This document shows, piece by piece, positions 4,673 through 24,362 of a DNA stretch of 32,000 nt; position 1 is the stretch's first letter, and the number at the start of each line of letters is the position of its first letter. The translations under genes and the position numbers were made by a program. The DNA is from Acaryochloris marina S15 (GTDB lineage: Bacteria > Cyanobacteriota > Cyanobacteriia > Thermosynechococcales > Thermosynechococcaceae). A model generated the notes under the pieces. That model saw nothing but the letters and a program-made list of their open reading frames with translations. It did not search any database and had not been told where the DNA came from. The stretch covers positions 2,610,001 to 2,642,000 of the forward strand of contig NZ_CP064923.1 of NCBI RefSeq assembly GCF_018336915.1, read 5' to 3'.

Positions 4673-5833
4673 GTGAAAGTAATCATTAATGCGTTGCACA
4701 GAGCAACTAGGCCCACAGGTGTGTGCAGATACGCTTTTAATCTAGCTATTGACTTATCAAGCTTGAGCAATATTGAAGAAGTTGTTCTACTTGTTGGTAA
4801 ATGGCAAGAATGTTACTTCTATTCCTCATTTGAAGTAAATAAAAGTAAAATTAAAATTGTGGCTATTGATATAAAAAATAATGCCCTTTCCAGAAATTTT
4901 TGGTTTTTACTTAGCCTCCCTAAGATAGTAAAGAAATTAAGAGGAGATCTTTTACATCTATCTTTCCCTATTCCAGTCGTAGGACACTGGATGAAAGTAC
5001 CTACTTATGTTACTGTTCATGACTTATATCCCTATGACATTCCAGAAAACTTTGGTTTTCCAAGAGTCTACTTCAATAGACTTTTTCTATTGATGAGTGT
5101 AAAGACTATTGAGAATATAGTTTGTGTTTCACATACAACAAAAAAACGATTAATACATTATTTCCCTCAAGAGTGTAAAGAAAAAAAAATATCAGTTGTT
5201 TATAATACAGTTAAGTTTTCGAGTGTCAAAGAGGTAGAGCCAAATTTTCTTTCTCACCTTCAATATTCTCCATTTTTTCTGTGCAATTCTCAACATAGAA
5301 AAAACAAAAATATTCCTCTTATACTTGAAGCTTTTTCAGACTTGCTTTTATCTAGAAAAATTAACTCTAAAACATTCTTATTGATTGTTGGCTCTAAAGG
5401 ACCTGAAACTGAAAAAATCTCCAAAATGTTATGGGATTTTCGAATTGATAAAAATACTATTTTCGTAGATTCTATTACTGACAATGAGCTGGCATGGTTA
5501 TATAAAAAATGTCAATTATTTATTGCGGCTTCTAGCTGTGAGGGTTTTTGCATTCCTTTGGCAGAAGCGTTGTTATTTTCAACAAATGTAGTATGTTCAA
5601 ATATATCGATATTCAAGGAAATTGGAGATAATAGCTTTACATACTTTGATCTGGATAAAAATGCATCTCATAATTTAGCAAAAGCGATAGAAAATTCATT
5701 GAATTACAAAGTTTTTAAGAACACAGTTGTTCAAGATAGTGTTAGTAAAAACAGAAATCTGTTTCTTAGTTCTGCAGATAAATATGGAGATTTATATAGC
5801 AGAAGTTTAGTGAATACTCCTACCTTTCAATAA
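4673..5833 (+). CDS. Glycosyltransferase, GT1/GT4-type (GT-B fold)
   Basis: 386-aa ORF with a GTG start. It carries the C-terminal GT1 signature EGFCIPLAEALLFSTNVVCSNISIFKEIGDNSFTYFD (the EX7E-type region). The gene is strikingly AT-rich compared with its neighbours. Confidence 0.8.
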   Translation: MKVIINALHRATRPTGVCRYAFNLAIDLSSLSNIEEVVLLVGKWQECYFYSSFEVNKSKIKIVAIDIKNNALSRNFWFLLSLPKIVKKLRGDLLHLSFPIPVVGHWMKVPTYVTVHDLYPYDIPENFGFPRVYFNRLFLLMSVKTIENIVCVSHTTKKRLIHYFPQECKEKKISVVYNTVKFSSVKEVEPNFLSHLQYSPFFLCNSQHRKNKNIPLILEAFSDLLLSRKINSKTFLLIVGSKGPETEKISKMLWDFRIDKNTIFVDSITDNELAWLYKKCQLFIAASSCEGFCIPLAEALLFSTNVVCSNISIFKEIGDNSFTYFDLDKNASHNLAKAIENSLNYKVFKNTVVQDSVSKNRNLFLSSADKYGDLYSRSLVNTPTFQ

Positions 5834-5864
5834 AAGCCTTTAGCAATTCTTATGGAATAAAGGG

Positions 5865-8800
5865 ATGAATATTTTAATTGAAGCAGAAAGTTATATCGGT
5901 GGCACTAATGGCGTTGAATATTTCGATACTTCGGCGGGTAACGGTGGCAACGCAAACCAATTTGCGGATGATGTAGATGTTCAGATTACTGATGACGTAG
6001 CAGGAGACTACCATCTCACAAAAATCAAGCCTGGAGAGTACTTAACCTACCAAATTGATATAGCCAATTCCGGTGAATATAACTTAGTCGCGCGTATTGC
6101 AAGTGGCCTAAATAATCGCAAGGTCGAAATCACGTTAGGTGGACAGACTTACAACTTAGATTTCGACAGTACTGGGGGAGCTTGGGCTGATGTTATCCTA
6201 CCGAGTATATTTTTGGATGCCGGTTCACAAGAGCTGCGGGTAGATGTGGTCAAAGGTGCCTTTGAACTCAACTATTTTGAACTGCAGCCAGTTGGAGGGA
6301 TAAGCCCAGACACAGACGCACCGACAGCAAGCTTGAATGCAAGTGACATCATGACTGCAGGTGGGACAGACTATAGCTTTACAGTGAGTTATAACGATGC
6401 TACTGGTCTTGATGAGGCAACAATTGATACAAATGACATCACAGTAATAGGGCCAAATGGTGCTTTACCTGTGACTTCAGTAGTAAATAATGCCGATGGC
6501 ACTGTTACCTACACAATAAGTGCCCCAGGGGGATCTTGGGATGAGGCTGATGATGGTTCTTATACCGTGACGCTTCAAGCCGGAGAAGTCGCCGATGTTC
6601 TCGGTAACATTGTGCCGGAGCTGTTATTGGGAACCTTTGCAGTGAATATTGCAAACCCTCCACCTCCTAGTCCTAACCTTCGTATTGAAGCAGAAAGTTA
6701 TATCGGTGGCACTAATGGCGTTGAATATTTCGATACTTCGGCGGGTAACGGTGGCAACGCAAACCAATTTGCGGATGATGTAGATGTTCAGATTACTGAT
6801 GACGTAGCAGGAGACTACCATCTCACAAAAATCAAGCCTGGAGAGTACTTAACCTACCAAATTGATATAGCCAATTCCGGTGAATATAACTTAGTCGCGC
6901 GTATTGCAAGTGGCCTAAATAATCGCAAGGTCGAAATCACGTTAGGTGGACAGACTTATAACTTAGATTTCGACAGTACTGGGGGAGCTTGGGCTGATGT
7001 TATCCTACCGAGTATATTTTTGGATGCCGGTTCACAAGAGCTGCGGGTAGATGTGGTCAAAGGTGCCTTTGAACTCAACTATTTTGAACTGCAGCCAGTT
7101 GGAGGGATAAGCCCAGACACAGACGCACCGACAGCAAGCTTGAATGCAAGTGACATCATGACTGCAGGTGGGACAGACTATAGCTTTACAGTGAGTTATA
7201 ACGATGCTACTGGTCTTGATGAGGCAACAATTGATACAAATGACATCACAGTAATAGGGCCAAATGGTGCTTTACCTGTGACTTCAGTAGTAAATAATGC
7301 CGATGGCACTGTTACCTACACAATAAGTGCCCCAGGGGGATCTTGGGATGAGGCTGATGATGGTTCTTATACCGTGACGCTTCAAGCCGGAGAAGTCGCC
7401 GATGTTCTCGGTAACATTGTGCCGGAGCTGTTATTGGGAACCTTTGCAGTGAATATTGCAAACCCTCCACCTCCTAGTCCTAACCTTCGTATTGAAGCAG
7501 AAAGTTATATCGGTGGCACTAATGGCGTTGAATATTTCGATACTTCGGCGGGTAACGGTGGCAACGCAAACCAATTTGCGGATGATGTAGATGTTCAGAT
7601 TACTGATGACGTAGCAGGAGACTACCATCTCACAAAAATCAAGCCTGGAGAGTACTTAACCTACCAAATTGATATAGCCAATTCCGGTGAATATAACTTA
7701 GTCGCGCGTATTGCAAGTGGCCTAAATAATCGCAAGGTCGAAATCACGTTAGGTGGACAGACTTACAACTTAGATTTCGACAGTACTGGGGGAGCTTGGG
7801 CTGATGTTATCCTACCGAGTATATTTTTGGATGCCGGTTCACAAGAGCTGCGGGTAGATGTGGTCAAAGGTGCCTTTGAACTCAACTATTTTGAACTGCA
7901 GCCAGTTATAATCGGCAGTTCACCGATTGCAGAAGAGATTCCTGACATAGTTGTGCTTGAAGACGCAAGCGATAGCAATATCGACTTATTTAACGTCTTT
8001 GATGACGCACAAGATAGTGACTCTGATCTAGCTTTCGTCGTCCTAGATAACTCTAACCCTAACTTAGTTTCCACAAGCCTCGCGGGTGGCACATTAACGC
8101 TAGATTACTCCGCCGTTGGCACTGGAGAAGCAAACATCACTATTAGGGCAACTGATACAGATAGTAATCCTACAGAAACGACTTTCACAACTACAGTTGT
8201 AACTCCACAGGCAAACGATGGGGTCATACGTATAAATGCTGGTGGCGATGCTGTCTATAACGATTTAGGACATCTCTTTCAAGCAGATACCTATAACGCT
8301 GGTGGTCAGGCTGTTAGTATTCTTAGCACTCAAGCAATCGCCAATACCAAATCCGACACCCTGTACCAGACTCAGCGACAGGGTGGCAATTTTACTTACA
8401 GTATTCCAGTAGCCAATGGCAACTATTTTGTCAACGCTCATTTGGTCGAGTGGGAAGCTACCGATTACAACCAGCGTTTGTTTGACATTACAGTCGAAGG
8501 GCAAACCTACTACGAGGACCTTGATGTCTACGGCGAAATCAAGAACGCCTTTTTGGCAGGTGAAAACACGGCTAAAGTCATTCAGGGGCCGGATAAAAAC
8601 ACGTCGATTATCGCCACAGTTGACGATGGTACTCTTGATATCAACTTCACGGCTAACCTAGGCGAAGCAACAATTGCGGCGCTGGAAATTGTCCCGGTTG
8701 GCCCCGGTTGGTTGGTACGAGAAACCAACGGAAATACCCAGGTGACTGAGGGCGCAACGGTAGATTCCTACACCATTGCATTGACGACTCAACCCACGAG

Positions 8801-10643
8801 CGATGTTGTGGTGACTCTACAGTTCGACAGTAGTCAGCTGAGCACCAACGTGACTAGTCTTACCTTTTCACCCAGCAACTGGAATCAAGCTCAGACCGTT
8901 ACAGTTACGCCGGTGGACGATGCATTGGCAGAGGGCCTACATACCTCTACAATTGCACACACCATTAGTTCTAGTGACCCTGACTACAGTAGCGGTCTGC
9001 CGGTGAACAATGTGACCGTTGCCATAACTGACAATGATGGTACGGGTGGTTCAATCAGCTTCACCCAGCAGCTGATTGCCGAGCCTATCAAGCCAACTTC
9101 AGCTGCATTTGGTCCTGACGGTCGACTATATGTTGCCTCGGTGACTGGCAACATCACCGTCTACACGCTCAATGACGACTATACTGTAGCAACCACCGAA
9201 GTAATCGATGTCATTAGTAACCTGTCGAACTCCAATATTACTGGTATTGCTTTCAACCCTTACGAAACGACTCCCAAGATTTATATCTCGCATAATGAAT
9301 TTTATGCTAACGGCGGGGATGCTTTTGCGGCCACTGAGTTTTCACCTTATAGTGGTCAAGTTTCCATATTGGAAGAAGTTAATGGTAATTGGGAGCTGAC
9401 ACCTCTGGTCACAGGCATTGGTGTTTCCAACCATGACCACGGAGTTAACGGCCTGGAGTTTGACAATAATGGCGACCTCTTTATAACCTCTGGTAGTAAC
9501 ACCAATGCTGGTGTTGCTGACCCTACTATCGGTGGTATCGACGAATCACCCTTCACTGCGGCTATCCTAAAGGCTGAGATTACTAAACCCGATTTCAACG
9601 GTAATATTGAGTACAGCCTGATCAGCGAGAATGACCTTATTCAGCCGGTTCCTCAGGCATTTCTAGACAGTTTGCCGCCCGAAATTTTTAACCCACCTAG
9701 TAATCTAGGTTTTGACCCAGCTGATAGCCAATTTTGGGGAGGGTACGTCGATGTCGTACCCGGTGTAGATGTCTCAGTCTATGCTAGTGGTCTGCGCAAC
9801 CCCTACGATTTAGTCTTCACAACTCAAGGTCTCCTCTATGCAACCGAAAACAATGCCAACGGCGGCTTCGGGGCGGAGTCAACAGGAGCTTATACCGATG
9901 TCCCCTTTGGCCAAGAACAGCCGGAAGAGCTGAATTTAATTCAAGAGGGCGCTTACTACGGTCATCCTAATCGTAACCGTGGTCGGGCCGATGCTCGTCA
10001 GAATGTCTACTACGACAGCCCAGTTGACCTACCTACTGAAGGCTACACAGCACCTATTGGAACCTTCCTAGGATCTACTAATGGTATCACCGAATACCGG
10101 GCGACAACCTTCGGTGGGCAGCTCCGTGGAAACTTGCTGGCCCAAAAATGGAAAAACAATCTCTACAATATAGAGCTATCCTCTGACGGGACTCAGGTTT
10201 TAGACAGCATCAACCTTAACGATGTAGCAACTGTGACTGGTGGCACCACCAATGGCCGGGTGGCCCAAGGTCTAGATATTATCACTGGACCTGGGGGGGC
10301 CATCGTCGGGGTCGACTATACTCGCGATGAGTTAACGATCGCCATTCCAGATGAGTTTGGCGTAACAGGTCCAACCGCTTACGATATCTACCCTTGGCGA
10401 GCGCCAGTTACTGGCGGCCAGGCGTTTATCATCGGTGGGGTCAACTTTGATACTGACCCAGGCGATACGAGAGTATTCGTGGGAGATCAGGAAATATTCA
10501 ATCTGGGTGTCTCTGAAGAGCGGATTACAGGTATTTTGCCTAATCTTTCAAATCAGGTCGGTGGCCTACTCGATGTAACTATTAGGGATGCTAACGATAA
10601 TATCGTGTCCGTTATTTCTGAGGCATTCCAACCGCTAGCCTAA
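5865..10643 (+). CDS. 1592-aa multi-domain carbohydrate-binding protein: 3x CBM6-like, 2x Ig-like, cadherin-like, malectin, Calx-beta-like, GSDH-like beta-propeller, IPT/TIG
   Basis: CBM6-like modules: IEAESYIGG..GEYNLVARIASG..FELNYFELQPV. Malectin-like: VIRINAGGDAVYNDLGHLFQADTY..LYQTQRQG..FTYSIPVANGNYFVNAHLVEWE..RLFDITVEG. Calx-beta-like: FSPSNWNQAQTVTVTPVDDALAEGLHTSTIAHTISSSD. Glucose/sorbosone-dehydrogenase-like propeller: FGPDGRLYVAS, HDHGVNGLEFDNNGDLFITSG, SGLRNPYDLVF, LNLIQEGAYYGHPN. The C-terminal TIG-like region reads VTGGQAFIIGGVNF. An in-frame TAG at 5841 rules out an N-terminal extension. Confidence 0.85.
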   Translation: MNILIEAESYIGGTNGVEYFDTSAGNGGNANQFADDVDVQITDDVAGDYHLTKIKPGEYLTYQIDIANSGEYNLVARIASGLNNRKVEITLGGQTYNLDFDSTGGAWADVILPSIFLDAGSQELRVDVVKGAFELNYFELQPVGGISPDTDAPTASLNASDIMTAGGTDYSFTVSYNDATGLDEATIDTNDITVIGPNGALPVTSVVNNADGTVTYTISAPGGSWDEADDGSYTVTLQAGEVADVLGNIVPELLLGTFAVNIANPPPPSPNLRIEAESYIGGTNGVEYFDTSAGNGGNANQFADDVDVQITDDVAGDYHLTKIKPGEYLTYQIDIANSGEYNLVARIASGLNNRKVEITLGGQTYNLDFDSTGGAWADVILPSIFLDAGSQELRVDVVKGAFELNYFELQPVGGISPDTDAPTASLNASDIMTAGGTDYSFTVSYNDATGLDEATIDTNDITVIGPNGALPVTSVVNNADGTVTYTISAPGGSWDEADDGSYTVTLQAGEVADVLGNIVPELLLGTFAVNIANPPPPSPNLRIEAESYIGGTNGVEYFDTSAGNGGNANQFADDVDVQITDDVAGDYHLTKIKPGEYLTYQIDIANSGEYNLVARIASGLNNRKVEITLGGQTYNLDFDSTGGAWADVILPSIFLDAGSQELRVDVVKGAFELNYFELQPVIIGSSPIAEEIPDIVVLEDASDSNIDLFNVFDDAQDSDSDLAFVVLDNSNPNLVSTSLAGGTLTLDYSAVGTGEANITIRATDTDSNPTETTFTTTVVTPQANDGVIRINAGGDAVYNDLGHLFQADTYNAGGQAVSILSTQAIANTKSDTLYQTQRQGGNFTYSIPVANGNYFVNAHLVEWEATDYNQRLFDITVEGQTYYEDLDVYGEIKNAFLAGENTAKVIQGPDKNTSIIATVDDGTLDINFTANLGEATIAALEIVPVGPGWLVRETNGNTQVTEGATVDSYTIALTTQPTSDVVVTLQFDSSQLSTNVTSLTFSPSNWNQAQTVTVTPVDDALAEGLHTSTIAHTISSSDPDYSSGLPVNNVTVAITDNDGTGGSISFTQQLIAEPIKPTSAAFGPDGRLYVASVTGNITVYTLNDDYTVATTEVIDVISNLSNSNITGIAFNPYETTPKIYISHNEFYANGGDAFAATEFSPYSGQVSILEEVNGNWELTPLVTGIGVSNHDHGVNGLEFDNNGDLFITSGSNTNAGVADPTIGGIDESPFTAAILKAEITKPDFNGNIEYSLISENDLIQPVPQAFLDSLPPEIFNPPSNLGFDPADSQFWGGYVDVVPGVDVSVYASGLRNPYDLVFTTQGLLYATENNANGGFGAESTGAYTDVPFGQEQPEELNLIQEGAYYGHPNRNRGRADARQNVYYDSPVDLPTEGYTAPIGTFLGSTNGITEYRATTFGGQLRGNLLAQKWKNNLYNIELSSDGTQVLDSINLNDVATVTGGTTNGRVAQGLDIITGPGGAIVGVDYTRDELTIAIPDEFGVTGPTAYDIYPWRAPVTGGQAFIIGGVNFDTDPGDTRVFVGDQEIFNLGVSEERITGILPNLSNQVGGLLDVTIRDANDNIVSVISEAFQPLA
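5877..7907 (+). repeat. Tandem repeat, period 807 bp (269 codons), about 2.5 copies, near 100% nucleotide identity
   Basis: Copies start at 5877, 6684 and 7491. The third copy ends at 7907, after the CBM6-like half. The only difference I found by eye is a synonymous C/T (C at 6152 and in copy 3, T at 6959). The identical minus-strand ORFs at 6624-6821 and 7431-7628 are a by-product of this repeat. Confidence 0.95.
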
Positions 10644-10975
10644 ACGGATTTCACAGTCATGGGTCAACATCGATTACCTAAATATACTCACATCGGTTGA
10701 GTGGTTATCAATGTGAACATTCTGGATTTACTCGATTCTGTAGTAGAAGGTATAAGGCTAAACAGCCATGTTAAATAAAATCGCCAAGAACTTGCCGAAA
10801 AGAGCATGCGAGGCTGAAGCCCTTATATCTTCTTTTAGAAACCAAAATCTTGGTTTCCAGACTGTATGTTCTACTCCGAGCATTTTCGGTTTGTATAGGG
10901 ATTTAAGTTATTGCGGATATATAACTTACACCTAAAAGTCTAGAAAAGTTTCAAAATCTTTTCAGTGCAATGGCC

Positions 10976-11005
10976 TTGACTAATTCGGAAAACTCTAAAT
11001 AGCAT
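10976..11005 (+). promoter_or_regulatory. Candidate sigma70-type promoter upstream of the ABC exporter operon
   Basis: TTGACT (10976-10981), an 18-nt spacer, then TAGCAT (11000-11005), about 85 nt upstream of the ATG at 11091. This is a pattern match only. Confidence 0.2.
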
Positions 11006-11090
11006 AGGTGATCGTTCTTTAAGGTTGCGGCTGAATCTGATAGCCAAAGCCCTGTCATGGGCACCATAAACTCATAAAAGTTAATCCGCT

Positions 11091-12905: not shown

Positions 12906-12915
12906 GAGATTTGTG

Positions 12916-13809: not shown

Positions 13810-13881
13810 CTCAATAACTCTGATTCAAGTTCCCGCCATCCCCCTCTGTCTCGCGTTAGCTGAGTTACTCAATAATATCCT

Positions 13882-16028: not shown

Positions 16029-16065
16029 GTTGACATTCAGCTGAGCGTGCAATTGGGAACTATAA

Positions 16066-16749: not shown

Positions 16750-17741
16750 TGTCTAAAATGAACACGATAACTGCAAAAAGGCTAGGCTATCTTACCCGGC
16801 GATCCAGAGAAAAGATTCAAGATGCCGTCGAGGATACGATCAGAGGTTGGCAGGCGGTTGGTCGGCAGCAGGCCGAAGTTGTCAATGAAAAAGAGATCCG
16901 AGTCCTGGGATTAAGGCGGTCTGGGAACCATGCGGTCATTAACTGGATTTGCAAGCAGCTGCCGGAGAACCATGTCTTCATCAACCATAGTCGGATCAAG
17001 GAGAACCCTTACCGAAATGTATACCGCGACCAGCTGTTTCTGGCACAACATGGTGACCTAAAAGGCTGGCGGTGTGAGAATATCGAATGGTGGGAGGAAG
17101 AAGCCAGAGGCCATTTTTCACACAAGGACTGCCTGGTTTACAGCTACGAAGACCAGGAAATCCAGCGAGTAGCTCACCCTGCCTTCGAGACAAGGCACAA
17201 TCTTTACTTAGGTAAGAGCCACGAACGAATCGACGTGATCATCATCCGAGATCCGTTCAACCTTTTGGCCAGTCGTCTCAAGGGTAACAAGCCTCGAGAA
17301 AAAGCTAGAAATTTTAACCTCATGCAGGTCTATTCGCATCGGCTGAACCTGCCGGAACTCTGGATTGAATATGCCAAAGAATGCTTAGGAGAGACCCAGC
17401 ATCTCCAAAACAATAAGATTGTAATTAAATATAACGACTGGTTTGCTAATGCAGCCTATCGCCAACAGATTGCTGGACAGCTGGGGCTTGAATTCTCTGA
17501 TGAGGGCTTCAACGAGGTGACGCGGGCGGGCGGCATTGGTAGCTCCTTCGACGGAACTGGATTCAACGGACAGGTGGCTAAAATGGATGTTCTGAGACGC
17601 TGGAAACAATTTGCTGATGACCCGCGCTTTCGAGCGTTGGCGTGCACGCCGACGCTGATTGACTATTCGAGAAAGCTATTTGGTCACTCTCCAGCGCTCG
17701 AACCACTAATTGAAGACCTCCAACGATCATGGGTAGGCTAA
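16749..17741 (+). CDS. Hypothetical protein, possible highly divergent sulfotransferase
   Basis: 330-aa ORF whose ATG overlaps the upstream TGA (TGATG at 16747-16751). P-loop-like VLGLRRSGNHAVINWI and IIIRDPFNLLASRLK resemble 5'-PSB and 3'-PB motifs. Confidence applies to the functional call; that it is coding is more certain. Confidence 0.45.
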   Translation: MSKMNTITAKRLGYLTRRSREKIQDAVEDTIRGWQAVGRQQAEVVNEKEIRVLGLRRSGNHAVINWICKQLPENHVFINHSRIKENPYRNVYRDQLFLAQHGDLKGWRCENIEWWEEEARGHFSHKDCLVYSYEDQEIQRVAHPAFETRHNLYLGKSHERIDVIIIRDPFNLLASRLKGNKPREKARNFNLMQVYSHRLNLPELWIEYAKECLGETQHLQNNKIVIKYNDWFANAAYRQQIAGQLGLEFSDEGFNEVTRAGGIGSSFDGTGFNGQVAKMDVLRRWKQFADDPRFRALACTPTLIDYSRKLFGHSPALEPLIEDLQRSWVG

Positions 17742-17754
17742 CAGGAGAATCAAT

Positions 17755-18891
17755 ATGCGCGTCGCAATTTTACGCAGAGCCCCCAAGGTCACCTTTAGCA
17801 TGGATGTTTATGCCAATAGCCTCATCAAAGGCTTACAGCAGGTTAGGCCTGACTGGGATATTATCGAGCGATCGCCCACCTCTTGTGTATCAAGCTTTAG
17901 GCAGCATAGTCTAATGGCAGGTTACCAAAAATACTACGAACGATTTTGGCAGTATCCTCGCTCTTTTAAGAATTTAGATGTAGATATATGCCATATCATC
18001 GACCAAAGTGATGGCTATTTAAGCCATTGGCTGAATCATTATCAAATCCCTAATGTCGTCACCTGCCATGATCTGATAAATCTTATTAAGCCAGAAACCT
18101 TTAAAGGTCGGTCTAGTTTCCCTCTTATTAGCATGACTGCCTGGAAATTTGCAGTTCAAGGAATGAGGGTTTCTAATCATGTCGTTGCGGTTTCATCTCA
18201 TACTAAACAAGATACGGTAGAGCATTTAGGGATTAACCCAAATCGTATTACAGTTGTTCCAAATGCAGTTGATTCAACATTTCAATTTCTTCCACAGGAG
18301 AAGATTGATTTATTTCGCCAACAACAGGGAGTCACGCCAAATACACTGTGTTTATTAAACGTTGGATCTAACAACTCACGCAAAAATATTCTGACGATCC
18401 TTAAAGTCATTGTCATTTTGCGGGCACAGGATATTCCCTTATTGTTTTGGAAAGTGGGGGCTGATTTTAATGCTGAACAAAAAAAATTTATTGATACACA
18501 TCATTTAAACAATTGTGTGGCTCATTTGGGACAACCAGATAAAGAAATGCTGGTTGAGCTATACAATTCAGCCGATATTTTGCTAGCTCCTTCTCTCTAT
18601 GAAGGGTTTGGCTTGACTGCTCTCGAAGCTATGGCCTGTGGAACAGCAGTAATCACTACAAATGTGACTTCTATTCCAGAAGTCGTTGGTAACGCTGCAA
18701 TTTTGACAGATCCTATGGATATTGATGCGATCTCAACCGAAATTCAGCGCTTGTACCATCATCCAAATGAACGTCAAGACCTTGTTCAACGGGGTTTAAA
18801 ACGCTCCAAGGAGTTCAATTGGGAGGATACAGCAGAGCAAGTCGCTAATATTTATGAGCAAGTTTTATACAAAGATGATGGGTTTGCCTGA
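17755..18891 (+). CDS. Glycosyltransferase, GT1/GT4-type
   Basis: AGGAG at 17743-17747 precedes the ATG. GT1 signature EGFGLTALEAMACGTAVITTNVTSIPEVVGNAAILTDP. Confidence 0.85.
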   Translation: MRVAILRRAPKVTFSMDVYANSLIKGLQQVRPDWDIIERSPTSCVSSFRQHSLMAGYQKYYERFWQYPRSFKNLDVDICHIIDQSDGYLSHWLNHYQIPNVVTCHDLINLIKPETFKGRSSFPLISMTAWKFAVQGMRVSNHVVAVSSHTKQDTVEHLGINPNRITVVPNAVDSTFQFLPQEKIDLFRQQQGVTPNTLCLLNVGSNNSRKNILTILKVIVILRAQDIPLLFWKVGADFNAEQKKFIDTHHLNNCVAHLGQPDKEMLVELYNSADILLAPSLYEGFGLTALEAMACGTAVITTNVTSIPEVVGNAAILTDPMDIDAISTEIQRLYHHPNERQDLVQRGLKRSKEFNWEDTAEQVANIYEQVLYKDDGFA

Positions 18892-18968
18892 TAACGAAGG
18901 AAGCAAATAAAGAAAATATCCTTGATCTTAAGGTATCAAGGCATTGATGTATTTAGAGAGATTAGTAC

Positions 18969-19859
18969 GTGAGTTACCAGCTAAAAGATGTCGTTCGCTT
19001 ACACGGCAGAGACTTGATTTTTGCAACCCGATACTGGCAGGACAAACTGGTCAACCAGCTACAGGGTAATCCTGACAAATCTCTGGTTCTCTGTAATTCC
19101 TATCCCAAAAGTGGAACACATTTACTCTATCAAATTCTTTACTCTATTCCAGGACTACATAAGTGGGATGATATCGTCTCAGTACAGGCCCTTTGCGGTG
19201 TAATGAATACAGTCGATCACATACGCTGGAAAGTGGGTTCAGCTCCCAATCACGCGATTGTAAGAAGCCACTTAATGTATTGTGATGAAATTTTCAAAAT
19301 ATTGAAAGATTTTAACTGCAAAACACTGTTTATCTATCGTGACCTACGAGATGTTGCTGTGTCTCATGCCCGTTGGGTGACGAATGAAGAGCGTATTTTT
19401 CTGCATAATTTCTATATTGCAGAAGATACCTTTGATCAACAATTAATGTACTCGATTAAGGGAGTTCCCATTGGTAGCCCCTTTAGCTCTAACGCTTCTC
19501 AGCCTGATATCGGTTCTGATTTCCGACGCTGGAGTGGTTGGATTACCGATCCTGGAACTCTATCCATTAAATTTGAAGACTTAGTCGGGGAGCGAGGCGG
19601 TGGTTCGGAAGATAAACGGCTTCTAAGAATTGAGCAGATCTTAGATCATCTTTCTATTTCAATCCCCACTCGGAAAGTCAAGGATCAGTTTGCATCTTAT
19701 GTGCTTAATCCAAATGACTCTCACACATTTCAAAAAGGTGGAAAAGGTAGTATTGGAGGGTGGAAAACTTACTTCACAGAAAACCATAAAACTGAGTTCA
19801 AGAAAGTTGCAGGCGAACTTTTAATTCATCTGGGCTATGAGCAAGATCATAACTGGTAA
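18969..19859 (+). CDS. Sulfotransferase (Sulfotransfer_1-like, cytosolic-type motifs)
   Basis: GTG start. 5'-PSB NSYPKSGTHLLYQIL and 3'-PB IYRDLRDVAVSHARW. Confidence 0.8.
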   Translation: MSYQLKDVVRLHGRDLIFATRYWQDKLVNQLQGNPDKSLVLCNSYPKSGTHLLYQILYSIPGLHKWDDIVSVQALCGVMNTVDHIRWKVGSAPNHAIVRSHLMYCDEIFKILKDFNCKTLFIYRDLRDVAVSHARWVTNEERIFLHNFYIAEDTFDQQLMYSIKGVPIGSPFSSNASQPDIGSDFRRWSGWITDPGTLSIKFEDLVGERGGGSEDKRLLRIEQILDHLSISIPTRKVKDQFASYVLNPNDSHTFQKGGKGSIGGWKTYFTENHKTEFKKVAGELLIHLGYEQDHNW

Positions 19860-20018
19860 GGCTGATGAAAAAAATTACGACAAGATAGCTTGTTGGCTTT
19901 GATCGATTTTGTGAGATACATAACATGACTATTGATATAAAAAATAGATTCTAAATAAACTGATTTTTCAGTTTTTCGAGTATATTTTTGAGTTTGATTT
20001 TATAATCAAATATTTTAT

Positions 20019-21218
20019 ATGACTAATCCTTTCCATCTGTGCATTGTTTTTACTCATCCTACTCAACATCATGGTCCTCTGTGGCGAAAGTTGAGTGAGC
20101 AACCTAATCTCGATCTAAAGGTTTTATACCTCTCTGATGAGAATCAGGGCAGTGGTGATGTCTTTTTAGGTGAGGCTGCTCAAGCCTGGGACGTTGATTT
20201 GCTAGGCGGTTACAACTATGAATACCTTAAAGATCTATCAGGTTCCGTTCCCACACAACGGAAGAAAACAGTACTCAGCCCAGCATTAATTCGTCAGATT
20301 AGTCCTAAATACTGCGATGCCGTTTTCATGCAGAGCTTTGTCAACTATTCTTATAGGCTAACTGCTTTTTTGTGCAAGATGCGTGGCATTCCGCTCATCA
20401 TGCAGAATGATGCGAGCATCATGTCTGACGCTCGCTACAGTCGGATGCGCCTCATTACAATGTCTTTCCTTTACCCTTGGATGAATAATCTGGCTGACTA
20501 TTGGCTCTCATGTGGTGATCATAACGAAGTTCATTTACGGCATTACGGCGTGAATGATACGAAGATTATTCGAGGCTGCCATCCCATTGATGGAGATCGT
20601 TTCCAGCAAACTATCTCGAACCAACCAGAAGAACTCCAGCGCATCCGTAAAGAGCTAATTTGGGATGAGAGTACCATCTTATATGGCTTTATGGGTAAAT
20701 ACATTGAGCGCAAAAATCCCTTCGAATTTATTGAAGCGATCTCACAGGCTCATCAGCATGATCCGCGTATTCGCGGCATTCTATTTGGGGGAGGCGATCT
20801 CGAATCGGCGATTAATCAGCGTATTGCAGAACTCAATGGCGAAGTGATTAACTACGGTTTCGTTAATCAATCCAAAATTCCGCTCTATTTTGCCGCCCTT
20901 GATGTCTTTATCACTACCTCCTGGATTGATCCGCATCCGCTGGTTATCTCTGAAGCAATGGCATCTGGCACACCTCCGATCCTAAGCGATCGTTGTGGCA
21001 ACTGGGGGTACAGTGATACCGTTCGTCATCGATATAATGGCCTAGTCTATCCCTGCGGCAACGTAAATGCCCTCACTGAGGCTATCTTGGGAATGACTGA
21101 GCCTGGCACCCGCCAGCAGTATCGAGAACGATCTTATGAGGTTTTTGGTGAACAAAACTTGTACTGTGAAGTCAATGCTTTTCTTGAAGCCATTGACCGT
21201 ATCAAAGCCAATACCTAA
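20019..21218 (+). CDS. Glycosyltransferase, GT1/GT4-type
   Basis: 399-aa ORF with a GT-B C-terminal region: YGFMGKYIERKNP..LFGGGDLE..PHPLVISEAMASGTPPILSDRCGN..NGLVYP. Confidence 0.75.
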   Translation: MTNPFHLCIVFTHPTQHHGPLWRKLSEQPNLDLKVLYLSDENQGSGDVFLGEAAQAWDVDLLGGYNYEYLKDLSGSVPTQRKKTVLSPALIRQISPKYCDAVFMQSFVNYSYRLTAFLCKMRGIPLIMQNDASIMSDARYSRMRLITMSFLYPWMNNLADYWLSCGDHNEVHLRHYGVNDTKIIRGCHPIDGDRFQQTISNQPEELQRIRKELIWDESTILYGFMGKYIERKNPFEFIEAISQAHQHDPRIRGILFGGGDLESAINQRIAELNGEVINYGFVNQSKIPLYFAALDVFITTSWIDPHPLVISEAMASGTPPILSDRCGNWGYSDTVRHRYNGLVYPCGNVNALTEAILGMTEPGTRQQYRERSYEVFGEQNLYCEVNAFLEAIDRIKANT

Positions 21219-21299
21219 ATAGAACACAAATAATCTCCACCACTCCAATCCCTTAGACTCATACATCTTATATCAACAGTTCTTGATATTTCTATAATA

Positions 21300-22529
21300 A
21301 TGAAAGTACTCCTATCAGCTTATTCATGCGAACCTGGCAGAGGCTCGGAACGGGGTGTAGGCTGGAATGTAGCATGCGAAGTTGCTAAACGCCATCAAGT
21401 CTGGGTTCTGACACGGCCCGATGAAAGCAAAGATGCGATTGAGGCCGAATTAGCAGCAAATCCTATCCCTAATCTACATTTCGTTTACTTCACCCTACCG
21501 TTTTGGCAAGATAGTATGCGTTTTGGCCACTCAGGAGCCATACAGATCCACTACTATCTATGGCAAATCCAAGCCTATTTCGTTGCACGGCAATTGCACC
21601 AAGAAATTGGATTTGATGTTACGCATCATGTCACCTTCGTAAAATACTCAGCACCCAGCCTGCTCTCTTTTTTGCCTGTCCCTTTCATATGGGGGCCTGT
21701 CGGAGGGGGAGAATCAGCACCTTTCCCTTTCTGGAAGGATTTTAGCCTGAATGCTCGTATATACGAGCTGACTCGAGATTTAGTTCGCAATATTGGCCAG
21801 CGAGATCCCCTTGTTGGTTTGACAATTCGGAATAGTTCAGTTGTTCGGGCTACCACTGATGACACCGCTAGACGACTTCATCGGATGGGCGCAACTGAGG
21901 TCCAAATCATTCCGGAAGTGGGACTATTAGATGCAGAAATTGCCGATCTTAATCAGAGTCCACTCTCTGTTTCACAACCGATTCGGTTTATTAGCATGGG
22001 CCGTCTACTGCACTGGAAAGGCTATCACTTAGGCATCCAGGCTTTCGCTAAGGCTGATTTGCCTGATGCTGAGTATTGGCTTGTGGGTGAAGGGCCAGAA
22101 CTAGATGCACTCCAGAATCTTGCCCAGTATTGTGGTGTAGCAAATCAAGTCAAATTCTGGGGGAGATTGCCTCGTGAAGAGACGCTCAAACGATTAGCCC
22201 AAAGCCATGTTCTGGTGCATCCGAGCTTGCATGATTCAGGCGGTTGGGTTTGTATCGAAGCGATGGCATCTGGGCGACCCGTGATTTGTCTCGATTTGGG
22301 TGGACCAGCAATTCAGGTGACTGAACACACTGGTTTTAAGATATCGGCTCAATCACCCGAGCAAGTGATTGGTGATCTTGCGGTCGCAATGCAAAAACTT
22401 ACACACGACCCAAATTTACGAATCAAGATGGGTAAGGCCGGTCGCCAACGAGTGGATAAAAACTTTAGCTGGAAGGTTGTTGGTGAATGTCTCGATAAGC
22501 TATACGAAGACACGGTCAAAGCGCAATAA
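21300..22529 (+). CDS. Glycosyltransferase, GT1/GT4-type
   Basis: MKVLLSAYSCEPGRGSERGVGWN N-terminus. C-terminal GRLLHWKGYHL..LVGEGPE..HPSLHDSGGWVCIEAMASGRPVICLDLGGPAIQV. Confidence 0.8.
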   Translation: MKVLLSAYSCEPGRGSERGVGWNVACEVAKRHQVWVLTRPDESKDAIEAELAANPIPNLHFVYFTLPFWQDSMRFGHSGAIQIHYYLWQIQAYFVARQLHQEIGFDVTHHVTFVKYSAPSLLSFLPVPFIWGPVGGGESAPFPFWKDFSLNARIYELTRDLVRNIGQRDPLVGLTIRNSSVVRATTDDTARRLHRMGATEVQIIPEVGLLDAEIADLNQSPLSVSQPIRFISMGRLLHWKGYHLGIQAFAKADLPDAEYWLVGEGPELDALQNLAQYCGVANQVKFWGRLPREETLKRLAQSHVLVHPSLHDSGGWVCIEAMASGRPVICLDLGGPAIQVTEHTGFKISAQSPEQVIGDLAVAMQKLTHDPNLRIKMGKAGRQRVDKNFSWKVVGECLDKLYEDTVKAQ

Positions 22530-22979
22530 TGTCCCTAAAAACTTATACAACAGTTTTTTATTACAAAATTAAATTGTATTAGTTATATCTAGATGTATTA
22601 TTAAAATCTTATTTACTAACTTGCACTCAATTTTTGAGATATAGAGATCAGAATTTCAAATTTATTACTCTAAATATTCTTGTAATTTACTAATATTAGT
22701 TTCTGGATAGCACAGATTAAATGCAAAAAAGCAGTCTCTATTCATCGTTTATTTTAATGAGGTATTAAGCATTGTTCAATCAATATAAATAGATATTTTG
22801 AATTCTATTTCTGATGGAATTCGAAATATCTCCTACTAAAAAATATTTAATGAGAATATATAGCAATCTGAAATCAATCGTGAGATGTAGAGAGGCTGAA
22901 ATCTTTACCAGTATCCATTTAGGTTGAATATAATTCTCACAACTCACGTCAGATCGCTATAGCAGAAGCTATTCAAAGA

Positions 22980-24362
22980 ATGAAGAATTATTTACGGGAA
23001 TATAAAATAGGGCTTATTAGTAGCTCAGTATTAATATTGATCGGATATGCGACAGCATTTTTCCCTCGTTTATTGTCTTTTTTTGGTGCTCCATCAGCTA
23101 TTAATTTCATTCACTTTGGAGTCATTCCAAGTATTTCAATACTTGTATTATTTAAGACTCGTGTCAAGATTCGAAAACAGATAAATCTTGTTTGGGATCT
23201 TATGATTGGGATGGCATTTCTGCTAACAATAACTCTTGTTAGTGCAATTTTAAATCATGCAGGAATTGTTAATATAGTTTTGCAATTCCTATTTCAGATA
23301 GAAGCATTTCTATTGCTCGCAGCCATAATATCAATACCTATGGCAGGAAAGTCTCTTCATCGATTTAGAAAGTATTTACTGGGTTTTGCTCTATTTAATC
23401 TATTACTTGCCTTAGCTCAATCTGTACTATTACCAATAGGTATCTATCCTAAACCTAAAGGTGGAACTTTCGCAGACAACATAACTGGCGTATTTGGTGG
23501 AGGTGGAGGCAGTGCAGCTAATTATGTTTCGTGTACAATCTCTTTTTATTTTGCTATTTATGTTTTTTTTTATTATAAGAAAGTGCCACTTTGGCTACGC
23601 ATGTTCCTACTACTCGCTGCTTGCTACCAAATTCAAGTATCAGATTCGAAGCAAGTTTTTATTGCTTTAGCATTTGGTTATGGAATCTTACTACTTACAA
23701 GGCTTAAAAATCTATTCGAACTAGTCTTTCATATTGTATTCATAATAGTTTTAACATTCATTGTAGCTTGGATATTATTAAATATTAATATAGAATTATT
23801 AGAGCCATATCAAAACTGGATAAATCGTGATATTTGGGGATTTGATGGGCTGGCTATATGGACAAAATTTTCAGCTTTTCGAATTATTCCCCGCTATTTC
23901 GTATCATCTCTAAATTGGTTATTTGGTCTTGGCCCAGGTCATACTGTTACGCGCTTGGGTGGATGGGTAATGCGAGATTATGCCACTTTACTTCTTCCAC
24001 TTGGTGCCACGACTCATGCTGCGACAAAAGATGTATGGGCAATTGTGGATATTTCATACTTGCCTCGAGAGTCTACCATTTACTTTCCATTATTTACGTG
24101 GGCAGGCATTTGGGGAGATATAGGTGTTGTTGGATTTTTCTCATATATCTACTTGTGCTCTATTGTCTGGCGCAAAATATGTGTAGATGAATTTGGTCGT
24201 TTTTTACTAATATCGTCTGCTATCTTGGGTTGCATCTTAACCCAAATTGAAGAGCCTGCGCATATGGTTACACTTGCTTGCTTGCTGGGAATGCGTTGGC
24301 ATGAAGAAAAAGAAAAAAAGAAAATAGTCTATGCATTATATGTTGAATACCCTGAACACTAA
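22980..24362 (+). CDS. Polytopic membrane protein, Wzy polymerase / O-antigen-ligase-like
   Basis: 460 aa, hydrophobic along almost its entire length (about 10 or more predicted TM segments by eye), AT-rich, and last gene of a glycan locus. The family call rests on context plus topology, not on a sequence motif. Confidence 0.6.
   Translation: MKNYLREYKIGLISSSVLILIGYATAFFPRLLSFFGAPSAINFIHFGVIPSISILVLFKTRVKIRKQINLVWDLMIGMAFLLTITLVSAILNHAGIVNIVLQFLFQIEAFLLLAAIISIPMAGKSLHRFRKYLLGFALFNLLLALAQSVLLPIGIYPKPKGGTFADNITGVFGGGGGSAANYVSCTISFYFAIYVFFYYKKVPLWLRMFLLLAACYQIQVSDSKQVFIALAFGYGILLLTRLKNLFELVFHIVFIIVLTFIVAWILLNINIELLEPYQNWINRDIWGFDGLAIWTKFSAFRIIPRYFVSSLNWLFGLGPGHTVTRLGGWVMRDYATLLLPLGATTHAATKDVWAIVDISYLPRESTIYFPLFTWAGIWGDIGVVGFFSYIYLCSIVWRKICVDEFGRFLLISSAILGCILTQIEEPAHMVTLACLLGMRWHEEKEKKKIVYALYVEYPEH

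Follow-up and report, generated by a model that had tools for sequence, protein, structure and literature searches.

A sulfotransferase-rich gene cluster of Acaryochloris marina as a candidate pathway for a multiply sulfated sugar polymer

Cyanobacterial gene clusters rich in sulfotransferases have already been described as a class by genome mining (Maeda 2021, PMC8205485; 2026 follow-up, PMC13125312). In the synechan xss cluster, two sulfotransferase genes are accompanied by those for a Wzx protein (XssH), the PCP XssK, the priming XssP and the regulators XssQ/R/S, and this arrangement yields a sulfated polymer (PMC8205485). Secretion of a sulfated EPS has been reported for an Acaryochloris isolate (PMC11034128).

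The cluster analysed here is found on one Acaryochloris marina chromosome and occupies positions 4673-24362 of a 32,000 nt stretch, hereafter the window. The most likely product of its 13 genes is a sugar polymer, surface-bound or secreted, that carries sulfate at several positions. As in xss of Synechocystis sp. PCC 6803, genes for PAPS-type sulfotransferases are interleaved with GT2/GT4 genes and some export components are encoded elsewhere, and the first sulfotransferase belongs to the same Pfam family as XssA, with 27% identity. The locus is nevertheless distinct from xss, as the sequence-only reading had supposed: identities did not exceed 27% over the full length or 34% over partial alignments, no DNA similarity was detected and the architecture differs. 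The A. marina locus is chromosomal whereas xss lies on plasmid pSYSM; it contains a PglK-type ABC protein, three plus one sulfotransferase-type genes and a lectin-type giant protein, and it lacks Wzx, PCP, primer and regulators. No characterised cluster is near-identical to it either.

Gene content and layout of the cluster

All 13 ORFs are located on the + strand and, with profile E-values of 1e-10 to 1e-31 across the locus, this arrangement is far beyond chance. They encode six glycosyltransferases and three sulfotransferases, all above Pfam cutoffs, a fused TMD-NBD ABC half-transporter, a 1592-aa CBM6/35-malectin-propeller protein and two proteins with no Pfam match; every Pfam assignment in the locus exceeded the gathering score. 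Intergenic gaps range from -4 to 159 nt, except for two of about 450 nt (10644-11090 and 22530-22979). The co-directional layout with short gaps and overlapping stop and start codons, proposed earlier, was reproduced with its coordinates, both overlaps being exact (ttATGA at 14970-14973, and cTGATG, in which base 16749 is common to stop and start). Every gene call was upheld. Two of them had no profile behind them, and for these AlphaFold2 models searched with Foldseek gave fold-level evidence. Promoter and terminator scans of the locus gave hits at chance level only. Profile searches of locus ORFs of at least 100 aa bore out the reported absence of priming phosphoglycosyltransferase, Wzx, Wza/Wzc and PAPS-synthesis families, and neither the window nor the 10 kb around the related loci described below contained a gene for a priming transferase, PCP, OPX or PAPS synthesis.

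Two of the glycosyltransferases belong to GT2 and are paralogs with 48% identity: GT2a (13882-14973; Glycos_transf_2, E 1.3e-30), which had no NCBIfam equivalog, and GT2b (14970-16028; Pfam GT2), which starts at the ATGA overlap. An upstream GT2b start at 14901 was rejected because orthologs align only from query residues 14-24 onward. The remaining four are a GT4 enzyme at 4673-5833 (Glycos_transf_1/Glyco_transf_4; GC 0.31, GC3 0.24), a second GT4 enzyme at 17755-18891 (Pfam GT4/GT1), a GT1-family (GT-B) enzyme at 20019-21218 and a GT4/GT1-family enzyme at 21300-22529, the latter two assigned by Pfam and sharing 80% and 76-81% identity with their orthologs. The gene at 20019-21218 is thereby among the two most conserved of the cassette.

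The three loops announced for the sulfotransferases (KGGTTS, KTAGTS and KSGTHL) were all found in the translations. Sulfotransferase 1 (12913-13809; Sulfotransfer_3/1, 54 bits) carries KGGTT at residue 14 and RDPVDRAYS at 112; sulfotransferase 2 (16066-16749; Sulfotransfer_2, 41.6 bits) carries the KTAGTS loop and RNPWDKVIS at residue 110; and sulfotransferase 3 (18969-19859; Sulfotransfer_1, 47.2 bits), which is 71-72% identical to its orthologs in the related loci L003 and L006, carries PKSGTH at residue 47 and RDLRDVAVS at 124. Translationally coupled to sulfotransferase 2 is an ORF at 16749-17741 that had been called a cryptic sulfotransferase. It matched nothing in Pfam or NCBIfam, and comparison with sulfotransferases by sequence profile, against the PDB and profile to profile gave nothing significant; the hhalign alignment, while not significant, was collinear with both motifs in register. 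Its AlphaFold2 model (pLDDT 91), in contrast, retrieved PAPS sulfotransferases as all of its top 13 Foldseek matches in the PDB (E 8.5e-6 to 5.5e-4), at TM scores of 0.34-0.48 and 9-13% identity. The motifs GLRRSGNH (residues 54-61) and RDPFNLLAS (residues 167-175) contain invariant residues. In all four sulfotransferase-type proteins a PSB-like loop precedes an R[DN]x6S motif by 77-110 residues, yet pairwise comparison showed no similarity between them (all E >0.9). A sulfotransferase fold is thus supported for the predicted structure of the cryptic protein, at the level of fold and not of profile. Its family comprises about 3,500 clusters and has no Pfam model; homologs occur fused to Stf0 sulfotransferases, GT8 and GT41, and in most cassette loci a sulfotransferase gene lies directly upstream. 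Many homologs stand alone amid housekeeping genes.

The half-transporter (11091-12905; Pfam ABC_tran and ABC_membrane) is of the PglK/MsbA/HepA type. Its best NCBIfam matches were PglK (311 bits), MsbA (279) and HepA (259), all under the cutoffs, and it aligned end to end with PglK in the PDB (5c73; E 2.5e-74; residues 5-581 to 2-560), its best full-length match among characterised half-transporters. In the otherwise orthologous loci L006 and L087, a Wzx (Polysacc_synt) gene takes the place of the ABC gene at the head, which suggests that the ABC protein may flip a lipid-linked oligosaccharide in a role equivalent to that of Wzx. The call of an ABC exporter therefore held for the ABC family and failed for the exporter type, as the protein resembles a PglK/MsbA-type flippase rather than a Wzm/Wzt- or KpsMT-type polymer exporter, and this changes the pathway to be proposed.

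The cluster ends with a polytopic membrane protein of 460 aa (22980-24362; GC 0.36, GC3 0.25) with no Pfam or NCBIfam match. Its AlphaFold2 model (pLDDT 88) had a single significant Foldseek match in the PDB, WaaL (7tpg_B; E 1.1e-4, TM 0.51/0.57, 12% identity), supporting a predicted WaaL/Wzy fold and, at that level, the earlier Wzy-like call. Since fold alone cannot separate Wzy, WaaL and PglL, polymerase, ligase and transferase activities would all be compatible with the model. The family exceeds 716 proteins without a Pfam domain, and its mean column identity of 63% across genera is unusually high for Wzy. The cassette-terminal position of the gene is conserved among loci, and in Calothrix 336/3 a family member ends a multi-glycosyltransferase cluster that has a PCP gene of the Wzz/tyrosine-kinase kind at a distance of about 10 kb.

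Near the other end, the giant protein (5865-10643) consists of three CBM6/35 plus Ig-like units, a malectin domain, a GSDH-type beta-propeller and a TIG domain (Pfam CBM_35_2/CBM_6 three times, Malectin, GSDH, TIG), in line with its description as lectin-type; a PDB search also gave malectin. A near-perfect 807 nt tandem repeat (5877-7907, about 2.5 copies, 2 mismatches) encodes the repeated CBM module, and the gene start falls directly in a repeat unit. No N-terminal signal peptide was evident by inspection. Over its C-terminal 710 aa the giant protein shares 77% identity with the product of the gene upstream of the Thainema cassette, and homologs of giant size are also present in L008, L009 and L012; it is a conserved upstream member of one cassette type (type A, below).

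Sister cassettes and origin of the locus

Related cassettes occur in Thainema, Altericista and Synechococcus PCC 7335, and in at least 11 other genomes in all. They fall into type A with 56-81% identity (Thainema, Altericista, L006 and L008-L012) and type B with 36-54% (PCC 7335 and L013-L015). Four sulfotransferase-type genes, considered unusual in the sequence-only reading, are so in comparison with the two of xss, but within the cassette family three to six are normal: Thainema has five Pfam sulfotransferases plus the cryptic one, and PCC 7335 four plus one. Every variant intersperses its sulfotransferase genes among those for glycosyltransferases, with translational coupling between the two.

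The A. marina copy departs from this scheme at its ends. The GT4 gene at 4673-5833 is the ortholog (44-46% identity to L003 16984-18015 and L006 16999-18024) of the sister-locus gene directly upstream of the terminal membrane gene, and is here displaced about 17 kb upstream, ahead of the giant gene. Its usual position is taken by an AT-rich spacer (22530-22979; GC 0.23-0.28), which holds no GT4 remnant and opens the low-GC block containing the membrane gene. The displaced GT4 and membrane genes are AT-rich imports of greater divergence (44-46% and 56-62%, respectively).

The locus looks horizontally acquired and strain-specific, in agreement with the acquired island proposed before: its proteins form singleton 90% clusters found on one A. 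marina chromosome only, no Acaryochloris representative genome was among the best 80 relatives, and the GC content is mosaic. Plasmids of Acaryochloris 'Moss Beach' carry a 108-130 nt relic of the GT4 gene 17755-18891. Upstream, on the - strand, lies a 66-aa C-terminal relic of an IS256/Mutator-family transposase (3434-3634; Transposase_mut, E 3e-4, 20.2 bits against a cutoff of 21). Downstream are fragments of an ISKra4-family transposase (24500-25276, - strand; profile positions 29-260 of 422) and an IS4-family transposase (28677-29546, + strand; positions 1-283 of 405), between them an apparently full-length IS66-family transposase matched by its profile (26138-27589, + strand), and finally a large XisF-like serine recombinase (29632-31791, - strand; Resolvase, Recombinase and Zn_ribbon_recom domains). 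As the flanking elements come from four IS families and no repeats common to both flanks were found, a composite transposon was ruled out; 'IS-bracketed' is apt as a description only.

Proposed pathway and alternative readings

The PglK/MsbA type of the ABC protein and the occurrence of Wzx in its place in sister loci point to an assembly line in which a lipid-linked unit would be built, sulfated, flipped and polymerised. We consider it slightly better than an even bet (probability about 0.55) that this acquired cassette copy assembles a sulfated hetero-oligosaccharide repeat on a lipid carrier, to be polymerised outside the cytoplasmic membrane. An unlinked priming transferase would start the chain on undecaprenyl phosphate, and the six glycosyltransferases (two GT2, four GT4/GT1) would extend it at the cytoplasmic face. 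Several distinct positions of the still-cytoplasmic unit would be sulfated by the three PAPS-dependent sulfotransferases, which are unrelated to one another, and probably also by the fourth from the uncatalogued sulfotransferase-fold family. The ABC half-transporter could then flip the lipid-linked sulfated unit, the terminal membrane protein polymerise it, and unlinked PCP/OPX proteins export a sulfated capsular or released polysaccharide, which the adjacent giant protein may bind or process. Counted against this pathway were the unlinked primer, PCP, OPX and PAPS genes, a conservation atypical of Wzy and the profile-less cryptic ORF. The earlier term exopolysaccharide agrees with a WaaL/Wzy-fold terminal enzyme, but names one of three fates: exopolysaccharide, O-antigen and protein-linked glycan are all compatible with the locus, which cannot decide between them.

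Ligation of a sulfated oligosaccharide or short polymer to lipid A-core by the WaaL-fold protein, giving a sulfated lipopolysaccharide, is unlikely but deserves the most weight among the alternatives. Sulfated LPS is known in rhizobia (Sinorhizobium LpsS sulfotransferase). The sole significant structural match of the membrane protein is a WaaL ligase, its family is better conserved across genera than is typical for Wzy, its homolog P0208 is labelled an 'O-antigen ligase domain' protein in the UniRef source, and Wzz/Wzc and Wza are lacking from the locus. However, the membrane gene is embedded in the cluster and tracks its variants, has Wzx as its partner in L006 and L087 and a PCP gene close by in Calothrix, and none of 40 family members gave a Pfam Wzy_C/O-antigen-ligase match, although hits up to E 1 were admitted. 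Moreover, at least one MAG holds two paralogs (P0194 and P0199), which is more in keeping with a cluster-specific polymerase than with a ligase present in single copy.

The displaced GT4 gene and the AT-rich imports imply that the pathway in this strain may be altered or impaired. That the cassette was acquired, rearranged by IS elements and no longer makes its ancestral product is quite improbable: the two gaps of about 450 nt, the truncated IS elements on both sides, the unlinked priming enzyme and a giant gene that begins in a repeat unit and has no evident signal peptide are in its favour, yet each of the 13 ORFs is intact and spans the full length of its orthologs, without frameshifts or internal stops, the tight spacing and both translational overlaps are kept, and sister loci lack a linked primer as well.

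Only a slim chance is given to protein O-glycosylation, in which a PglK-like flippase and a PglL-like oligosaccharyltransferase would transfer the sulfated oligosaccharide in one piece to proteins that are secreted or displayed at the surface, such as pilins or the giant protein encoded next to the cassette. The WaaL/Wzy fold is also that of PglL-type enzymes, PglK is the best characterised match of the half-transporter, six glycosyltransferases would suit a short, defined glycan, and a conserved gene for a large extracellular-type protein adjoins the cassette. Against this, the PglK score is far under its equivalog cutoff and nearly equalled by MsbA and HepA, the acceptors lack support, a PCP gene lies near the Calothrix relative, and the domains of the giant protein are lectin-type and enzyme-like, with no obvious glycosylation repeats. 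Action of the sulfotransferases on a glycolipid or small metabolite, the polymer itself being unsulfated, is very improbable: these Pfam families also sulfate bacterial lipo-oligosaccharides and glycolipids (PMC8205485) and many cryptic-family homologs lie outside glycan clusters, but the interleaving and coupling in every cassette variant and the sulfated product of the analogous xss layout (PMC8205485) speak against it.

Comparison with known systems

For the polymer pathway we favour, the nearest relatives are the sister cassettes of Thainema sp. MCC5402, Altericista sp. CCNU0014, Synechococcus sp. PCC 7335 and several MAGs, which share its gene families in an almost unchanged order (giant protein, ABC, ST, GT2, GT2, ST, cryptic, GT4, ST, GT1, GT1, GT4, membrane protein); no experimental studies of them were found in the literature searched. 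The A. marina locus lacks one or two extra sulfotransferases of Thainema, and differs from all in its displaced GT4 gene and the AT-richness of its GT4 and membrane genes.

Campylobacter jejuni PglK and E. coli MsbA share the fused TMD-NBD architecture of the ABC protein; its PglK score is 311 bits against an equivalog cutoff of 1000, and unlike in C. jejuni PglB is absent from the locus, no pgl glycosyltransferase reaches its cutoff and the substrate would be sulfated. Anabaena HepA is likewise a cyanobacterial MsbA-like ABC exporter inside a glycosyltransferase-rich polysaccharide locus, HepA_fam_ABC being the third-best NCBIfam match (259 bits, cutoff 725). Sulfotransferases are not known from heterocyst envelope polysaccharide (HEP) loci, and Acaryochloris is not known to form heterocysts. 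The terminal protein shares its polytopic membrane fold with WaaL (7TPG) and the Wzy_C superfamily (WaaL, Wzy, PglL), at 12% identity and with Pfam Wzy_C in 0 of 40 family members.

TPST1/2, SULT7A1 and Stf0 are fold-level top matches of the cryptic protein, which has in common with known sulfotransferases an RSG-type PSB-like loop and an R-x7-S 3'-phosphate motif, in the order and spacing of the three Pfam sulfotransferases of the locus; it differs from TPST1/2, SULT7A1 and Stf0 in that N-H replaces the usual T-T of the loop and in its low TM scores and identity. The A. marina cluster is thus a good candidate within a recognised, conserved cyanobacterial class rather than a surprise, and its freshest element is the family of 330-aa proteins with a predicted sulfotransferase fold, which recurs in fusions with Stf0 sulfotransferases and glycosyltransferases.

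A conserved sulfotransferase-rich cassette

ORF listing of the window revealed 13 co-directional ORFs on the + strand between positions 4673 and 24362, with intergenic distances of −4 to 159 nt except for two gaps of about 450 nt (10644–11090 and 22530–22979). Two junctions overlap, namely a ttATGA at 14970–14973 and a cTGATG in which the stop and start codons share base 16749. The thirteen co-directional genes, short gaps and ATGA (14970) and TGATG overlaps of the sequence-only reading were thus exact in ORF coordinates, the two longer gaps coming in addition. Pfam analysis, in which every glycosyltransferase (GT) and sulfotransferase (ST) assignment scored above the gathering score, identified four GT4/GT1 glycosyltransferases (4673–5833, 17755–18891, 20019–21218 and 21300–22529), two GT2 glycosyltransferases (13882–14973 and 14970–16028) and three sulfotransferases, ST1 (Sulfotransfer_3/1, 12913–13809), ST2 (Sulfotransfer_2, 16066–16749) and ST3 (Sulfotransfer_1, 18969–19859), so that the six glycosyltransferases and three sulfotransferases proposed earlier were recovered in full; the loops KGGTTS (in ST1), KTAGTS and KSGTHL were seen in the translations. 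The ABC exporter and giant lectin-type protein proposed alongside them are likewise present, the former as a fused ABC_membrane and ABC_tran protein (11091–12905) and the latter as a 1592-aa product (5865–10643) carrying three CBM6/35 modules, malectin, a GSDH-type propeller and TIG. As orthologs align only from query residues 14–24 of the ORF called at 14901, the second GT2 gene likely begins at the ATGA-coupled codon at 14970 and not at 14901 as given by the ORF lister.

Among the window ORFs of at least 100 aa, no Pfam or NCBIfam match to a priming phosphoglycosyltransferase, Wzx, Wza/Wzc or a PAPS-synthesis enzyme was obtained, in agreement with the absences already remarked upon, and Polysacc_synt, Wzz/GNVR, Bac_transf and regulator domains were absent as well. 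None of the six cassette glycosyltransferases reached an NCBIfam equivalog cutoff, and promoter and terminator scans for the limits of the operon yielded results at chance level (46 versus 39.7 ± 7.4 and 12 versus 16.1 ± 3.8, respectively).

The giant gene contains an 807-nt unit present in about 2.5 copies with two mismatches (5877–7907), each copy encoding one CBM6/35 plus Ig-like module. A script was used to measure this repeat, which Tandem Repeats Finder had missed at a period limit of 500 and which represents either a very recent expansion or possibly an assembly collapse or expansion. The giant protein as predicted opens directly in the repeat unit, with no signal peptide evident.

A near gene-for-gene counterpart of the cassette (type A) was found in Thainema sp. 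(56–81% identity), in the metagenome contig L006, in five MAGs (L008–L012) and in Altericista sp. CCNU0014, and a divergent type B (36–54%) in Synechococcus sp. PCC 7335 and three further loci (L013–L015). One of the latter, L014 (JBCCWR010000067.1), is a 12-kb contig binned as Verrucomicrobiota with the type-B order cryptic ORF, GT2, GT4, GT2, ST2, GT4, GT4, membrane protein, and is either mis-binned cyanobacterial DNA or a transfer between phyla. Sister loci hold three to six sulfotransferases (five by Pfam plus the cryptic ORF in Thainema, four plus one in PCC 7335), so that four is typical of this cassette family. The interpretation of the locus as a candidate pathway for a sulfated polysaccharide was largely right, with an exopolysaccharide as one of several possible products, but four sulfotransferase-type genes are not unusual and the rarity of the locus had been overstated.

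A sulfotransferase-fold family outside Pfam

The cryptic ORF (16749–17741, 330 aa) matched no Pfam or NCBIfam model, and no Pfam match appeared when 42 of its homologs were scanned one by one at E-values up to 1. The family is large: a word-indexed search returned 214 matches, an exhaustive hmmsearch 3566 clusters at 50% identity (the best 150 of which, with E ≤ 1e-60, were listed), and species-representative genomes 334 loci. Alignment of 42 members revealed 34 invariant columns, including G54, R57, G59, N60, H61, R167, D168, P169 and S175.

The AlphaFold2 model of the cryptic ORF (pLDDT 91, pTM 0.90) had PAPS sulfotransferases as all 13 of its best Foldseek matches in the PDB (TPST2, SULT7A1, TPST1 and SULT2A8; E 8.5e-6 to 5.5e-4), with modest TM-scores of 0.34–0.48 and with P-loop nucleotide kinases next in the ranking. 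Sequence profiles gave no such result: an hmmsearch of the family profile against the PDB found nothing, and hhalign to a sulfotransferase remained below significance with both shallow and deeper profiles (probability 2–3%). A local hhalign with ST1 was collinear over the whole protein at a probability of only 2.4%, and this alignment, itself below significance, placed GLRRSGNH over GAAKGGTT and RDPFNLLAS over RDPVDRAYS of ST1. We take GLRRSGNH to be the 5′-phosphosulfate loop, with Arg in place of Lys as in TPST and Stf0, and R167 and S175, spaced i and i+8, to be the Arg/Ser pair by which sulfotransferases bind the 3′-phosphate; by motif resemblance both are putative PAPS-binding elements. 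ATP-binding P-loops carry a GK[ST] that is missing from this loop, a point against a kinase.

Domain fusions provided independent support: a Stf0 sulfotransferase domain lies N-terminal to the cryptic domain in three representatives, and other fusions join it to GT8, TPR-GT41 or a 2OG-Fe(II) oxygenase. A canonical sulfotransferase gene is located directly upstream of the cryptic ORF in the window and in most sister loci. We conclude that the cryptic ORF has a sulfotransferase fold and a functional tie to sulfation and glycosylation, and its earlier description as sulfotransferase-like thus holds at the level of fold (AlphaFold2, Foldseek) and not of sequence profiles; PAPS-dependent catalysis would be in keeping with these features.

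Many homologs are solitary among housekeeping genes, which makes genomic context only partly useful as evidence for the role of the family. In Lusitaniella coriacea (L034) a ferredoxin-sulfite/nitrite reductase gene (7942–9828) is followed directly by a solitary homolog (9965–10909), and in other genomes homologs are found beside LeuRS, LepA or STAND NTPases, indicating that many members reside outside glycan clusters. Tandem arrays of two to five family matches between GT4 and GT2 genes occur in Okeania, Dapis and other MAGs (L026, L029, L044, L047 and L071). Distant homologs of 26–34% identity, annotated as hypothetical, are carried by plasmids or megaplasmids of Gemmatirosa, Paracoccus, Ruegeria, Tritonibacter and Jannaschia (H3–H8), so that the family reaches beyond cyanobacteria.

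A proposed pathway of flipping and polymerization

The best NCBIfam matches of the ABC protein were PglK (311 bits), MsbA (279) and HepA (259), all below their cutoffs, and its best end-to-end PDB match among half-transporters was PglK, a lipid-linked-oligosaccharide flippase (E 2.5e-74). In L006 and in a further orthologous locus (L087), a Polysacc_synt (Wzx) gene heads an otherwise orthologous operon from which the ABC gene is missing; in L006, Wzx is followed by an ST1 ortholog with 65% identity to ST1 of the window. The window has no Wzx, and relative to these two loci the PglK/MsbA-type ABC gene holds its place. No other observation speaks as strongly for the ABC protein flipping a lipid-linked repeat unit as this exchange of position does, and on gene order and sequence similarity we regard the protein as a putative flippase. 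A pathway of the Wzm/Wzt or KpsMT type was rejected, as the cassette encodes a single fused ABC_membrane and ABC_tran protein of the ABCB/MsbA/PglK type and no separate ABC-2 permease and NBD.

The last gene (22980–24362) encodes a 460-aa membrane protein without a Pfam or NCBIfam match. Forty homologs scanned singly at E-values up to 1 matched neither PF04932 (Wzy_C) nor any other Pfam family, and a profile search against the PDB found nothing. Its predicted model (pLDDT 88) gave a sole significant structural match, WaaL (7tpg_B; E 1.1e-4, TM 0.51/0.57 over 464 columns), the next match having an E-value of 0.14 and a TM-score of 0.1. The model supports placement in the WaaL/Wzy superfamily at fold level, which applies equally to a polymerase, a ligase or an O-oligosaccharyltransferase, and the designation 'Wzy-like' given to this protein from its sequence is upheld at that level. 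The gene is always the last of its cluster, usually with a GT4 gene just before it, and one MAG carries two paralogs. In Calothrix sp. 336/3 (L089, CP011382.1) a homolog likewise ends a multi-GT cluster, and a Wzz/tyrosine-kinase PCP gene lies some 10 kb from it; PhyH and GT47-like genes belong to this cluster, and the region displayed contains no sulfotransferase.

The most likely scheme would be a Wzy-dependent-type pathway with an ABC flippase able to replace Wzx, in which sulfation would take place in the cytoplasm through three or four unrelated sulfotransferases. The four sulfotransferase-type proteins show no pairwise similarity (all E above 0.9), and all four have in common a loop and an R[DN]x6S motif 77–110 residues apart. 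Neither the window nor the flanking 10 kb of the sister loci contains a priming phosphoglycosyltransferase, PCP or OPX, which may be encoded elsewhere; the primer, PCP/OPX and PAPS supply would then be provided from other parts of the genome, as is partly so for the synechan (xss) cluster of Synechocystis PCC 6803 (PMC8205485).

Rivals to a polymerase concern the terminal membrane protein, which could instead act as a ligase, giving a sulfated O-antigen, or as a PglL-type transferase, giving sulfated protein O-glycans. Both are favored by the fold match being to WaaL itself, by the lack of linked PCP/OPX genes and by the unusually high conservation of the membrane family, whose mean column identity is 63%. 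The cassette could also be impaired in A. marina S15.

A more novel reading would have the cryptic ORF represent either an uncatalogued family of PAPS-dependent carbohydrate sulfotransferases (∼3500 clusters at 50% identity) or an obligate partner subunit of the canonical sulfotransferases. On either option, the ABC flippase and Wzx would be interchangeable in the cassette family, whose product would be a densely sulfated, glycosaminoglycan-like bacterial polymer, each repeat of about six to seven sugars bearing as many as four sulfates. We hold this tentatively, at roughly three chances in ten. The partner-subunit option would account both for the repeated fusions to Stf0 domains and for the stop/start coupling.

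Island status and relation to known systems

The cryptic ORF, the membrane protein and ST3 are 100% identical to QUY44827, QUY44832 and QUY44829, respectively, of one A. marina genome, and each is a singleton, alone in its 90%-identity cluster in a set of about 15 billion proteins. The best relative in representative genomes was Thainema (64%), with no Acaryochloris among the best 80 listed. These singletons, the lack of Acaryochloris relatives in that list, a downstream serine recombinase with several IS elements, and a mosaic composition support the view of the cassette as a horizontally acquired genomic island. Of the IS-flanked acquired island proposed earlier, the IS debris on both sides was thus confirmed and the acquisition supported. 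A composite transposon was rejected, as the flanks carry four IS families (IS256, ISKra4, IS66 and IS4) and no long flanking direct or inverted repeats.

The upstream flank includes an IS256/Mutator C-terminal relic on the − strand (3434–3634; E 3e-4, 20.2 bits, marginally under the cutoff of 21), in whose region lies a 29-nt inverted repeat (3618–3646 and 3730–3758) with 97% complementary arms 83 nt apart. Immediately upstream of the relic, a large RHS-repeat protein with nine RHS stretches and a non-repeat C-terminal tail (67–3351) has the appearance of a polymorphic toxin and bears no relation to the glycan cluster. The remaining flank genes comprise an ISKra4 fragment, an apparently intact IS66 transposase, a GNAT gene and an IS4 fragment; the IS66 element adjoining L006 is only 52% identical to that of the window. 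The 719-aa large serine recombinase (29632–31791, − strand), with Resolvase, Recombinase and Zn-ribbon domains and XisF as its best NCBIfam match (below cutoff), is situated about 5 kb beyond the cluster and could mark the true island boundary.

Composition within the cassette is uneven. The GT4 gene at 4673–5833 (GC 0.31, GC3 0.24) and the membrane gene (GC 0.36, GC3 0.25) fall in sharply bounded AT-rich blocks at about 4300–5860 and 22530–23900, the other cluster genes having a GC of 0.41–0.50. Sister loci have the two genes side by side and with ordinary GC; in the window they are separated, and they are its most divergent members relative to the sister loci (44–46% for GT4, 56–62% for the membrane gene). 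The 450-nt gap that precedes the membrane gene contained no relic of a displaced GT4 gene. It looks as if the GT4-polymerase module was replaced from an AT-rich donor and then rearranged, and variation of this sort is well known in O-antigen and capsule loci.

The three Pfam sulfotransferase genes, which are interspersed among genes for six glycosyltransferases and an ABC exporter, match the class criterion of PF00685/PF03567/PF13469 among EPS-type genes (Maeda 2021), and numerous clusters of this kind have been predicted, biosynthesis beyond xss being very little known (PMC13125312, a 2026 follow-up). A sulfated EPS has been reported from a different Acaryochloris isolate, with no genes assigned (PMC11034128), which is indirectly in line with a sulfated polysaccharide as the predicted product. 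As the class is already recognized and literature searches found no published characterization of the cassette, it is an uncharacterized representative of that class. What is added here is the conserved cassette with its two subtypes, the ABC/Wzx interchange, the folds of two uncatalogued families and the fusion evidence for the sulfotransferase fold. Both families, one of sulfotransferase and one of WaaL/Wzy fold, are sizeable, missed by Pfam and NCBIfam and annotated as 'hypothetical'. For specialists this amounts to a useful candidate pathway and a gain in annotation with no conceptual surprise; should the fourth sulfotransferase-type protein prove active, it would extend the set of enzymes with which defined sulfated glycans can be produced in microbes.

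Identity with the synechan xss cluster was rejected, as there is no orthology and no DNA match to pSYSM, and the gene orders differ; these DNA, protein and gene-order comparisons bear out the earlier view that the locus is a different one. In blastp comparisons with the 14 Xss proteins, identity was at most 27% (ST1 with XssA) and 34% over 123 aa (a partial GT4 match with XssG). When the 19.7-kb region was compared by megablast with all plasmids in PLSDB, pSYSM among them, the only match was a relic of 108–130 nt on plasmids of Acaryochloris sp. 'Moss Beach'. This apparent relic of the GT4 gene at 17755–18891 (window 18164–18290; 94–98% identity) is located on pMB07 (L088, 4001–4108) and on NZ_CP071718.1, on both plasmids in unannotated intergenic DNA beside RiPP genes. 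To our knowledge, synechan/xss is the only cyanobacterial sulfated-polysaccharide pathway tied to genes, sacran and spirulan having none assigned. Whereas xss has Wzx, a PCP (XssK), the priming XssP and the regulators XssQ/R/S, the locus in the window lacks all of these. The cassette is a second cyanobacterial one, architecturally distinct from xss and widely conserved. It occurs in strains that can be cultured (A. marina, Synechococcus PCC 7335 and Altericista) and offers a testable parts list, namely several sulfotransferases, either a PglK-type ABC protein or Wzx, and a terminal enzyme of predicted WaaL/Wzy fold.
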